Below are positions 44,678-47,757 of a stretch of DNA of 64,000 bases, one piece after another. Position numbers and translations under genes: made by a program. How positions within the stretch are numbered: the stretch's first letter is position 1; every line of letters starts with the position of its first letter. Origin of the DNA: an uncultured Chlamydiae bacterium (GTDB lineage Bacteria > Chlamydiota > Chlamydiia > Chlamydiales > JAJFMB01); the NCBI GenBank assembly GCA_963696295.1, contig CAVOJR010000001.1:2816001-2880000 (forward strand), in the 5' to 3' direction. The notes below the pieces were generated by a model. The model was not told the origin of the DNA. It saw only the letters and a list, made by a program, of their open reading frames with translations, and made no database searches.

Positions 44678-44965
44678 ATGCTATTGCCATCCAGATCTTT
44701 ATCAATAGCTTCAGATGATGCTGTTGACATAGCGCCCGTAAATTTGCAGAACGTTTCTGTGATCAAGATGGACGTTGAAGGGTATGAAATGGAAGTGATT
44801 GCCGGGGGAATGGAAACCATTTTGCGCAATAAACCTGTGCTGTTTGTGGAAATTTGGAGAGCCGGTATTGAGAGGTATGAGCAAAAAGTTCAAACCATAG
44901 AAGCCTTAGGTTACACATCCGTTTGGTTGGGCGACGATGACTTTCTCTTTCTCCCAAATTCTTAA
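44678..44965 (+). pseudogene. FkbM family methyltransferase, C-terminal fragment
   Basis: IKMDVEGYE.EVI.GG..TI...KP.LFVE; N-terminal SAM-binding motif absent. Confidence 0.75.
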
Positions 44966-45603
44966 TTTGTCTCTATGGGGATCTTGGCAAGCTCTTCCAA
45001 TTTGCTGCCTGATTTTCGATAGAGATAAAGCGCCCAGGTGGTATTCTCGCTCAAGTTTTTAGCTTTTAAATTTAGGGTCTTATTCTCTAATTTTCTGATA
45101 GCCGGTGTGATTTTTTCATCTGTTTTTTGACGTAAGGAAATATGATAACCGAATGTTTTCGGTTTGCCTTTTATAAATTCTGGGGAGATGCCAATGAGTT
45201 TTACAAATTTTGATGTGATGGCAAATAAATCTGGGGAAGTGAGATGGATAAAATCCAGCTTTGGTTTTTGCTGTAGGGTCTTTATGTTAATAGTAATGGA
45301 TTTTCTTTCGTTGACAGCTTGTTTTAAAGCCTCAATATATTCCTCTTCAGCGGCCGTCTTTCCGGGAAAAAATCCCGTCAAAGAGCAATGTGGGGGGTAA
45401 TTTAACACAGCAGGGTTTTTCAAGTTCCGGTCTTTGACCCTTTTCCAAAATTTACTTAATTGTTTACCTAGAGCTCCCGCAGGGCGGAGATCTAAAATGT
45501 AATCGGGATCAGAATGGCAATTGCAGGATCTGATGGGATTCAGCTCTGACCCCTGAAGTGAACAATTAAAAGTTAATAGAAATAAGAGAGCAAGCCTTAG
45601 CAT
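44962..45603 (-). CDS. Exported 2H phosphoesterase family protein (copy 1)
   Basis: Signal peptide; two Hx(S/T)x motifs PHCSL and YHISL; AGGAGG RBS. Confidence 0.75.
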   Translation of the reverse strand: MLRLALLFLLTFNCSLQGSELNPIRSCNCHSDPDYILDLRPAGALGKQLSKFWKRVKDRNLKNPAVLNYPPHCSLTGFFPGKTAAEEEYIEALKQAVNERKSITINIKTLQQKPKLDFIHLTSPDLFAITSKFVKLIGISPEFIKGKPKTFGYHISLRQKTDEKITPAIRKLENKTLNLKAKNLSENTTWALYLYRKSGSKLEELAKIPIETN

Positions 45604-45811
45604 GAAATCCTCCTTTTAGGATTTCTTCCTTATATTCTTGAGGCAAATTTATTTGCAATGCAGAGTTTGGAAAGAAGCAGCTCAACAAAAAGCTGATAAT
45701 CCTTCCGTCGGAAATGAAGGATTAACATGAGCAAAAAGTTCAAACCATATAAGCCTTAGGTTACACATCCGTTTGGTTGGGCGACGACGACTTTCTCTTT
45801 CTCCCAAATTC

Positions 45812-46456
45812 TTAATTTGTCTCTATGGGGATTTTGGCAATCTCTTCCAATTGATTGCCAGATTTTCGATAGAGATAAAGCGCCCAGGTGGTATTCTCGC
45901 TCAAGTTTTTAGCTTTTAAATTTATGTACTTATTCTCTAATTTTCTGACAGCTGCTGTTGTTTTTTCATCCGTTTTTTGACGTAAAGTAATATGATAGCC
46001 AAAAGTTTTTGGTTTGGCTTTTATAAATTCAGGAGAAATGCCAATGAGTTTTACAAATTTTGTTGTAATGGCCAATAAATCGGGGGAAGAGAGGGAGATA
46101 TAATCCAGCTTTGGTTTTTGCTGCAGGGTTTTAATGTCAATGGTAACGGGATTTTTACCTTTAACGGCTTTTTGTAAAGCTTCAATATATTGCTCTTCAT
46201 CGGCAGTGTTTCCAGGGAAAAATCCCGTCAAAGAGCAATGAGGAGGATAATTTAACACAGCCGGGTTTTTCAAGTTTTGGTCTTTGACGCTATTCCAAAA
46301 CTTTCTCAACTGTTTACCAAGAGCGCCCCCGGGACGCAGATCTAAAATGTAATCGGGATCAGAATGACGACAGCGGCAGGATCTGACAGGATCTGGTTCC
46401 GAGCCTTGAAGCACAAAGTTAAAAGTTAATAGAAATAAGAAAGCGAGCCTTAGCAT
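45812..46456 (-). CDS. Exported 2H phosphoesterase family protein (copy 2)
   Basis: PHCSL and YHITL; about 81% identical to copy 1 by manual alignment. Confidence 0.75.
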   Translation of the reverse strand: MLRLAFLFLLTFNFVLQGSEPDPVRSCRCRHSDPDYILDLRPGGALGKQLRKFWNSVKDQNLKNPAVLNYPPHCSLTGFFPGNTADEEQYIEALQKAVKGKNPVTIDIKTLQQKPKLDYISLSSPDLLAITTKFVKLIGISPEFIKAKPKTFGYHITLRQKTDEKTTAAVRKLENKYINLKAKNLSENTTWALYLYRKSGNQLEEIAKIPIETN

Positions 46457-46482
46457 GAAATCCTCCTTTTAGGATTTCTTCC

Positions 46483-47757
46483 TTATATCCTTGAGGCAAA
46501 TTTATTAGCAATGCAGAGTTTGGAAAGAAGCAGCTCAACAAAGAGCTGATACTCTTTTCGGTCGTAATAATAGACGTTAGACTTCGGGTCGGGTGTGGTT
46601 TGAAGGAACCCTATTTCATTCACTGTCACTTTGACGGGAGAGGCGGTCAAAGAGGGATCGATTAGCGCGAGGGCCAGGATGACGTCCGAAAGGGTGAATT
46701 GCAATCCCGCACAGGGTTGCACCTTATGGGCGAAACTTAATTCCCGCTCCAACTTATCGAGAGTTTCCCGGTGGTTGTTTAAAGCGAGCAATTCCGATCG
46801 CAAACATTCCAATTGTGCCGTCAATTGGAGAAATCGTTCCCCGCACCACATTCTGGACAGAGAAAAAAGCTGGTCGTGAAGTTGAGATAATTGCTCTTTT
46901 TTCTGAGGGAATAGAACAGATAATTTCTGAATCAGCCCGGTAATTTCACTCAAGCTAAGAGAGAATTTGTACTTATTCCAATTAGAACTTAAGGTCCTAA
47001 ACATAGCGAAAAAGGGGTCATTCGATTGGCGGATCCTTTCAGCGATGGGATGGGTCCAGGGGTATTGGCAATAAACAGAGCCCTGGTTTCCCAAAACCCC
47101 ATATGTTTCTACGATGCCGATTTTTTTGAAATTTTTACTGAATTGGTCCAGCATGATTTGCAGCCGGACGGAAACGGATTGATCAGGGGTGAAATGAAAG
47201 GAGCGGACTATCTCTTTATCATCGAGCGCTTTTCGCAGATTGAAACTCCCATAACAAATGAGATCGCTTTTTTGGGAGAGCGCCTTATCGAAGGAGAGAG
47301 CGGCAAGCTCCTGGACAGGCTTGAGCTGAATAATCAAAGGGCGCTTCGCTCCTTTGACGAATTGAATCAGCGCTTCCGTTCCCTCATCTTGATGAGGAAA
47401 TGGATAGGCTTTAAATTTCTCATCCAGCTCCTCTCCGTCATAGGGAAAGAGGTTGTCTAGGGTGGATCTCCCTTCTTTTACTTCAATCTTGACCGGTACG
47501 TTGTAATAGCAACAGAGCAATGTCTCCATTCTGGCTTTTTTGATGGCGCTGTTGCCTTCTCCCACAATCACCATTTGGATCGGATACTTATGATGGAGGC
47601 AGTAGAGGCGGTTTGCCTCGTCGAAGATTATCTTTAAGGCGAGAACATCGTCGGGTTCCAGATCGGTGGCAATGACAATCTCATCATAATCAGCGAGTTG
47701 AAATACTCCATGGATTTCGGAAAACAGGAATAGCAGAAGCGCCAGGAACCTTACCAT
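46483..47757 (-). CDS. Exported protein, nucleoside-hydrolase-like
   Basis: Signal peptide; N-terminal TDLEPDDVLAL resembles the DxDxxxDD Ca-binding motif; late SDVILALAL. Confidence 0.5.
   Translation of the reverse strand: MVRFLALLLFLFSEIHGVFQLADYDEIVIATDLEPDDVLALKIIFDEANRLYCLHHKYPIQMVIVGEGNSAIKKARMETLLCCYYNVPVKIEVKEGRSTLDNLFPYDGEELDEKFKAYPFPHQDEGTEALIQFVKGAKRPLIIQLKPVQELAALSFDKALSQKSDLICYGSFNLRKALDDKEIVRSFHFTPDQSVSVRLQIMLDQFSKNFKKIGIVETYGVLGNQGSVYCQYPWTHPIAERIRQSNDPFFAMFRTLSSNWNKYKFSLSLSEITGLIQKLSVLFPQKKEQLSQLHDQLFSLSRMWCGERFLQLTAQLECLRSELLALNNHRETLDKLERELSFAHKVQPCAGLQFTLSDVILALALIDPSLTASPVKVTVNEIGFLQTTPDPKSNVYYYDRKEYQLFVELLLSKLCIANKFASRI

Follow-up and report, generated by a model that had tools for sequence, protein, structure and literature searches.

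Recent duplication of a gene end may have placed the alleles of two lineages side by side in a chlamydial genome

Insertion with long target duplication (Furuta, Abe and Kobayashi 2010, PMC2853133) is known from long, variable direct repeats (>30 bp) around a short insert that carries neither integrase nor transposase, and it was mostly reported in naturally competent species. In homology-facilitated illegitimate recombination, which was proposed for the type VI secretion system (T6SS) arrays of Vibrio (PMC5361080), one end of the incoming DNA is anchored by homology, the other end is joined illegitimately, and the old gene end is shifted downstream as a displaced 3' orphan. In the merodiploids of Streptococcus pneumoniae made by transformation (PMC3784515), a donor fragment bridging sister chromatids produces a tandem duplication able to hold two alleles. 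We analyzed a 64,000-nucleotide (nt) stretch, hereafter the window, from the genome of an uncultured Chlamydiae bacterium (GCA_963696295.1, contig CAVOJR010000001.1, positions 2,816,001 to 2,880,000), in which a short direct repeat contained two copies of a gene for a putative 2H phosphoesterase.

The copies of this repeat, 44877-45707 (A) and 45727-46560 (B), were 87.3% identical over 834 columns, and no third copy was present in the genome. The order within a unit was the tail of an FkbM methyltransferase gene, the 2H gene, a 26-nt spacer and the tail of the neighboring gene U, and a 19-nt filler joined the two units. The span between the two FkbM tails was 761 nt; it encoded a 2H protein and had no mobility gene. 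The features were as follows.

44745-44965, plus strand: truncated FkbM methyltransferase gene that has kept its 3' part, open over 73 codons, and lost its 5' part; covers positions 105-148 of the 173 of PF05050
44962-45603, minus strand: 2H phosphoesterase gene, copy A; 213 residues, both H-x-S/T motifs intact
45145-45148, no strand: site where one breakpoint best divides the repeat into a young segment (left) and an old one (right), at 2H codon 153/152
45604-45629, minus strand: 26-nt spacer with an 8-bp hairpin that contains a Shine-Dalgarno-like run; same sequence as 46457-46482
45630-45707, minus strand: orphan copy of the end of gene U; last 25 codons and stop
45708-45726, no strand: 19-nt junction filler; no match elsewhere in the genome with fewer than 3 mismatches
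45727-45815, plus strand: orphan 3' end of the FkbM gene with an in-frame stop; start of repeat copy B
45812-46456, minus strand: 2H phosphoesterase gene, copy B; 214 residues, the slower-evolving copy
46483-47757, minus strand: gene U; 424 residues, with the final 78 nt forming the end of repeat copy B

The counts that the original prediction, made from the sequence of the window, gave for the tails stood. One correction concerned the left-hand FkbM copy, which was itself a 5'-truncated remnant and not an intact gene: its alignment to longer homologues began at about 44745, and its last 89 nt (44877-44965) formed the start of repeat copy A. The chance that 73 codons would stay open was 0.014 at a divergence (d) of 0.1; therefore, the gene died recently. 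No second FkbM match was found elsewhere in the genome with the remnant as query. The filler was also compared with decayed U or FkbM sequence, and neither was significant against shuffles (P 0.12-0.49); against random genomic 19-mers a P of 0.02-0.05 was obtained for U only.

The repeat was mosaic: its left part was young, whereas its right part, which reached the edge of the orphan U tail, was old and had diverged mainly at silent sites. The two 2H proteins differed at 39 residues and by one 3-nt indel, which bore out the predicted figure of about 40 in 214. The Nei-Gojobori synonymous divergence (dS) of their genes was 0.505 and the non-synonymous divergence (dN) 0.093 (dN/dS 0.18), and 51.5 of the 95 nucleotide differences were synonymous. 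The FkbM tails differed at 2 of 89 nt, as had been counted before; one of these changes was synonymous and the other gave a stop codon in the copy on the right. The first 23 nt of the orphan FkbM tail from the junction were identical to its partner. The orphan U tail showed, relative to 46483-46560, exactly the five synonymous codon changes that had been listed and one E/D replacement, all six at third codon positions. Both flanks were thus less diverged than the 2H gene with its 95 differences in 639 nt (2/89 for the FkbM tail, Fisher P 0.0003; 6/104 for the U tail with the spacer, P 0.013), and at synonymous sites the FkbM tail had 1 of 19 changed against 51 of 140 in the 2H gene (P 0.007). 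A breakpoint near 45145 separated 4 of 77 differing degenerate third positions on its left from 44 of 144 on its right (permutation P 0.001). A third segment added just 1.9 log units to the model, and the U tail fell with the old part; its third positions did not depart from those of 2H codons 1-152 (Fisher P 0.37). The ratio of non-synonymous to synonymous differences (pN/pS) was 0.22 and 0.37 in the two 2H segments. If the orphan tail had been dead since a dS of 0.3-0.5, 8-12 non-synonymous changes would be expected; one was present (P <=0.003). Judged from these alignments, the two 2H copies were far older than the duplication that holds them.

The reading that we preferred, with a probability of roughly 0.6, was that a recent gene-end duplication brought together the alleles that two lineages had of the 2H gene and of U, the gene upstream of it. 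The corresponding 2H-U blocks would probably have accumulated their differences as functional genes, each in its own lineage. In one version of the events, an incoming fragment whose source was a sister lineage (identity of about 85% in this region) would have recombined by homology near the stop codons of the FkbM and 2H genes. Its other end, broken within U, would have been joined non-homologously, with the 19 nt of filler, to the host sequence 89 nt before the FkbM stop. The FkbM tail would then be a target duplication made by the host, and copy A with the orphan U tail would be foreign. Alternatively, a tandem duplication made by the host could have been followed by ordinary import of an allele over copy B and U, which would give the same pairwise pattern. 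Each of these two versions fitted all the segments; the two routes were equivalent, so that either A or B may be the foreign copy. Taking the U tail as the host target and B as foreign was the least likely geometry because the host tail would have to be biased and the foreign FkbM tail would also have to match that of the host almost exactly. Under the preferred reading, copy A may since have drifted under relaxed but not absent selection. The earlier proposal of a foreign allele from a related strain was the best-supported one given the age mismatch and the breakpoint; it fell short of proof, as the searches gave neither a genome of the same genus nor a close homologue.

The original prediction started from the synonymous bias of the orphan U tail and assumed that a decaying duplicate should show mostly non-synonymous change. 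This premise was too strong since the partner copy stays constrained: with one constrained and one neutral copy, 30-45% of the differences are expected to be synonymous. Against this null, at least five synonymous differences out of six had a P of 0.011-0.069 over 16 settings of transition bias (kappa) and dN/dS (omega), and 0.07 at the genome-wide share; therefore, the bias was borderline. In a post hoc test, the location of all six differences at third positions had a P of 0.005-0.018. For comparison, we screened the genome and obtained 128 two-copy direct repeats outside arrays, including 24 rows in which a gene 3' end was repeated downstream. Five rows were dropped (three with the second copy inside another long gene and two with <500 nt between the copies), which left U and 18 others. 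The 18 orphan tails had 61 synonymous and 79 non-synonymous differences, with a pN/pS of 0.48 at kappa 3, a value near the transition ratio of 20:13 at fourfold sites. Their synonymous excess was not significant at kappa 3 and omega up to 0.2 (P 0.10-0.41) and was significant at kappa 1 (P <=0.037) or at omega 0.4 (P 0.013, kappa 3); the 16 loci that were informative showed no heterogeneity (P 0.51). No conservative bias was seen among the non-synonymous changes of the tails (z 1.1), and the polarity of differences along 17 tails was uniform (Kolmogorov-Smirnov P 0.62). Thus, the bias largely faded across loci, which is what pairs of one constrained and one decaying copy should give. Such fading was one of two refuting conditions named in the original prediction, and it held in part. 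The firm anomaly was the age of the 2H genes (dS 0.50). Relative to 73 of 143 third-position differences in 17 other tails, the 6 of 6 in the U tail made it a mild outlier (P 0.018 in a codon-position test that is free of transition bias and post hoc). Since the bias largely vanished over the other tails, our argument for two lineages rested on the age mismatch and the breakpoint rather than on the 5:1 ratio.

Copies A and B were sisters in the tree (99/99), but the outside homologues in it were <=67% identical and, thus, too distant for this grouping to bear on the foreign-allele proposal. Derived residues were unevenly distributed between the copies, with 25 in A, 10 in B and 5 unresolved (P 0.017; branches of 0.20 and 0.042). 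Copy A had no stop or frameshift, the probability of which under full neutrality was 0.08-0.002 at d of 0.02-0.05; since the frame was intact despite faster change, this copy appeared to be relaxed and not dead. GC content at third codon positions failed to separate the copies (0.39 for A and 0.36 for B; direction 18:16).

This asymmetry could also have arisen in an old tandem duplication of the 834-bp unit within the lineage, in which gene conversion kept the flanks alike and selection for a diverging A protected the middle. Copy A was indeed faster yet open, divergence along the repeat peaked in the middle of the gene and was low at either end, and short identical patches between the copies suggested conversion tracts. 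Such a peak under conversion has been described for opsins and other genes (PMC3924837), and host-made tandem duplications were common: among 91 tandem arrays with a period of 45-247 nt, 34 were inside genes (all multiples of 3), 24 overlapped gene ends (mostly 3') and 33 were intergenic, so that 57 lay at or between gene ends. However, this history predicts no synonymous bias in a dead tail, and all six differences there were at third positions, four of them within the outermost six codons. It also requires that both orphans were repaired to the very edge without an indel, and the filler was not recognizable as a decayed edge. We therefore regarded it as unlikely, though worth keeping in view. 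Conversion that came before a deletion would avoid the problem of the edge. Namely, a longer old duplication with FkbM, 2H and U all present twice may have persisted under purifying selection, with FkbM and the 3' end of 2H converted, until a recent deletion from inside one U copy to inside one FkbM copy left the stubs. This would explain the third-position bias and the dS of the 2H genes without a donor. On the other hand, redundant copies of U and FkbM would have been kept in tandem for a dS of about 0.4-0.5, with conversion and two deletions in addition, and the FkbM tail was much younger than the 2H gene at synonymous sites; we found this history improbable. Both duplication histories retained some weight because the asymmetry and the identical patches suited them and because the likelihood advantage of the tail under the preferred reading varied with the rate that was assumed for the first two codon positions.

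Rapid change of the 2H gene after a recent duplication, which the original prediction offered as its second cause, was hardly credible. Most derived residues were in A, including 8 of the 9 changes in codons 153-214. However, the differences were mostly silent, as the low dN/dS and the pN/pS of both segments showed, so rapid adaptive change was not the cause of the excess, and selection on the protein cannot lift silent divergence to 0.5 with flanks at 4%. The joining of two strain haplotypes in tandem by the assembly was also very improbable. The junction had no read evidence, and a transposase pair elsewhere in the genome contained several 1-nt insertions that were possibly read errors. Nevertheless, the assembly consisted of two contigs (3.43 Mb, chromosome GC 0.47) with 97% completeness and 1.5% contamination, the filler was unique, the orphan FkbM tail had its own stop codon, neither 2H frame was disrupted, and the genome had many similar repeats of gene ends, with a gradation in age (82-100% identity).

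Several observations weighed against the two-lineage reading. Identical patches of 64, 44 and 43 nt between the repeat copies indicated a mosaic more complex than a single breakpoint, and so did the young segment, in which three codons derived in A had each changed twice. The faster change of A was equally expected from an old pair of paralogues. The tails across the genome fitted host-made duplication and decay, without polarity, and alone gave no sign of allele capture. The 6 of 6 third positions in the U tail had a likelihood of 0.001-0.06 under allele-like rates and <=0.001 under conversion followed by decay, and this advantage vanished (0.0011 in both cases) once the first two codon positions were taken to diverge as fast as in 2H. 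Neither a genome of the genus nor a near homologue that could represent a donor or close strain was found among 40 relatives or in an order-wide search. Of the 400 genomes of the order that were scored, 7 had the 2H gene, the source genome included, and the outside homologues obtained were <=67% identical (best 66%). Adjacency of U and 2H was seen at none of 4 other U loci. Finally, reads did not confirm the junction: in the one DNA run listed (share 0.09), possibly from the source sample, the exact pieces, five in number and 151-173 nt long, lay on B, U and a PLC-like gene, and none on A or the junction. This run counted neither for nor against the junction, and no RNA run was listed. Scans of metagenome and genome contigs with single proteins were empty, and alignment scans reached <=45% identity. 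Named homologues and a genome of the same order assigned the source to Chlamydiia; the two same-family genomes, which belonged to other genera, had no 2H or U match.

Repeated gene ends were frequent elsewhere in the genome. Namely, 17 other gene tails of 75-563 nt, 82-100% identical, were repeated around inserts of 0.8-8.7 kb with a GC content of 0.33-0.44; therefore, foreign DNA does land at gene ends in this genome. The repeats ended from 61 nt before to 25 nt after the stop codon (P 3e-6 under a simple placement null, though the screen required a nearby stop). One of 37 scanned insert open reading frames (ORFs; 38 listed) was an IS3-type transposase, and none of the 37 belonged to an integrase or restriction Pfam family. 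By eye, the tail repeats shared no end motif. At three loci the two same-family genomes had no tail repeat, but downstream synteny was lost there. One such repeat was located 2.2 kb away in the window, where the 3' end of an ABC permease gene (48746-48851 and 49883-49988; 5 synonymous and 2 non-synonymous differences and a different stop codon) enclosed a 1.03-kb insert of 35% GC with an orphan ORF (49046-49636) and a 47-nt imperfect inverted repeat (49649-49875). Two separate uvrA-like genes each had a gene-tail insertion, one of which encoded a PF00144 beta-lactamase-family fold. Two longer repeats were rejected as parallel cases: a 2-kb repeat at C1:1454077/1457786 (identical 5' end, pN/pS 0.20) was a transposase pair, and a whole-gene repeat at C1:130397 had a pN/pS of 1.26. 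The latter, a 1.5-kb repeat behind queC (C1:130397-135706), duplicated a whole orphan gene and had 23 non-synonymous changes in a 50-codon patch; from its sequence, diversifying selection was possible.

The genome encoded ComEC, MutS and Ku, and the Ku gene adjoined a stand-alone ATP-dependent ligase gene (C1:810006-811609). ComEC uptake and end joining by Ku and the ligase are candidate machinery, as suggested by the presence of these genes. Ku occurred in 6 of the 41 genomes searched, the source genome included, and in neither same-family genome. Non-homologous end joining can capture foreign DNA in Sinorhizobium (PMC6379672), and interspecies crosses of Chlamydia work and yielded an extra rrn operon (PMC8936141). 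Since searches of the genome for reverse transcriptase (PF00078) and TraU (PF06834) were empty, an RNA-mediated or F-type conjugative route was unsupported. A broader and doubtful extension would be that this lineage has a standing integrase-free route in which DNA is taken up, pairs by homology at one end with the 3' end of a gene and is joined at the other end by Ku and the ligase, so that foreign genes are added behind stop codons; with a sister species as donor, an allele would instantly become a "paralogue" and then diverge.

Copy B was predicted to have the 2H phosphoesterase fold: its AlphaFold model had a pLDDT of 87, the listed Foldseek hits were led by LigT, CPDase and Usb1 (TM 0.37-0.53), and the PF13563 match (E 1e-5) was slightly under the family cut-off. 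The histidines of the two H-h-S/T-h motifs, H73 and H155, were invariant in 20 of 20 aligned homologues, A and B included. A 2H profile search reached the 2H domain of UBA-2H-SH3-phosphatase (Sts/UBASH3-type) proteins with E of 1e-4 to 1e-7, and no solved structure was related by sequence. The hydrophobic N-terminus suggested that copy B may be exported. Gene U had 30 homologues besides itself and no Pfam hit under E 0.07; an Atlas language-model score of 0.91 to PF01156 clusters (nucleoside hydrolase-like) was a lead only. From the fold and the neighbor, the 2H enzymes were most likely exported 2',3'-cyclic-nucleotide phosphodiesterases that feed a nucleoside hydrolase in nucleotide salvage. 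One homologue in another genome was a 2H-FkbM fusion, so both families were linked there too.

The region of the U start (47746-47766), which included the Shine-Dalgarno sequence and the first codons, was about 90% identical over 21 nt to 45592-45612 and 46445-46465 at both 2H starts, suggesting a possible common leader module of the three genes. No stable fold on the 2H strand was found for the FkbM tail as a terminator (z about +0.8), and a promoter scan of the flanks gave 3 sites against 4.2 expected, none in the tail. For the orphan U tail as a gene of a 32-codon peptide with an ATG in the filler, no Shine-Dalgarno sequence was seen upstream. The locus was preceded by pdhABC, and a minus-strand run of genes for an ABC ATPase, an FtsX/MacB permease, a PI-PLC-X-like protein, U and 2H ended there. 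About four copies of a 72-nt unit with about 10 nt of filler covered the pdhB stop and the pdhC start (window 43122-43407); in the two same-family genomes the pdhB-pdhC gap was 21-50 nt and had no such unit.

If the preferred reading is true, a seeming tandem pair of paralogues is in fact a pair of alleles from two lineages, whose dS dates the split of species and not the duplication, and duplication ages and expansion counts in host-associated chlamydiae would be biased. If the integrase-free route is also true, apparent gene-family expansions by duplication in environmental chlamydiae would in part consist of alleles that were captured, and the distribution of gene-end repeats in the phylum should follow that of Ku. 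The single locus alone is a scar of modest biological weight; the genome offers about 18 gene-end insertions of graded age as a usable test set for a poorly understood mode of insertion.

We found no report of gene-end target duplications in chlamydiae, as judged by titles and the openings of abstracts. The 2H proteins shared two H-h-S/T-h motifs and the 2H fold with the superfamily near the Sts/UBASH3 phosphodiesterase domain (PMC10218301), but here they were stand-alone bacterial proteins with a hydrophobic N-terminus and a predicted activity. Similar to the cases of insertion with long target duplication, the duplicated target was longer than 30 bp (89 nt for the FkbM tail, or the whole 834 nt, and 75-563 nt at the 17 other loci), and the insert, 761 nt at this locus, was below the limit of 20 kb and carried no other mobile element. 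In contrast to that paper, where restriction-modification genes serve as a criterion, no scanned insert contained them; moreover, the repeats here were gene 3' ends, and the "insert" at the locus was probably a diverged allele of the neighboring gene. The Vibrio arrays shared the homology-anchored end, the illegitimate other end and the displaced gene end, whereas here there was no effector-immunity pair and the joint jumped backwards, duplicating rather than deleting host DNA. In S. pneumoniae, the joint was formed between pre-existing insertion sequence repeats and the duplicated units were 100-900 kb; here there was no joint repeat and the unit was 0.83 kb. The locus was a scar of recombination, of a type that is broadly known, in a genome where duplicated gene ends are frequent; its twist is that the cargo was probably an allele of the adjacent gene.

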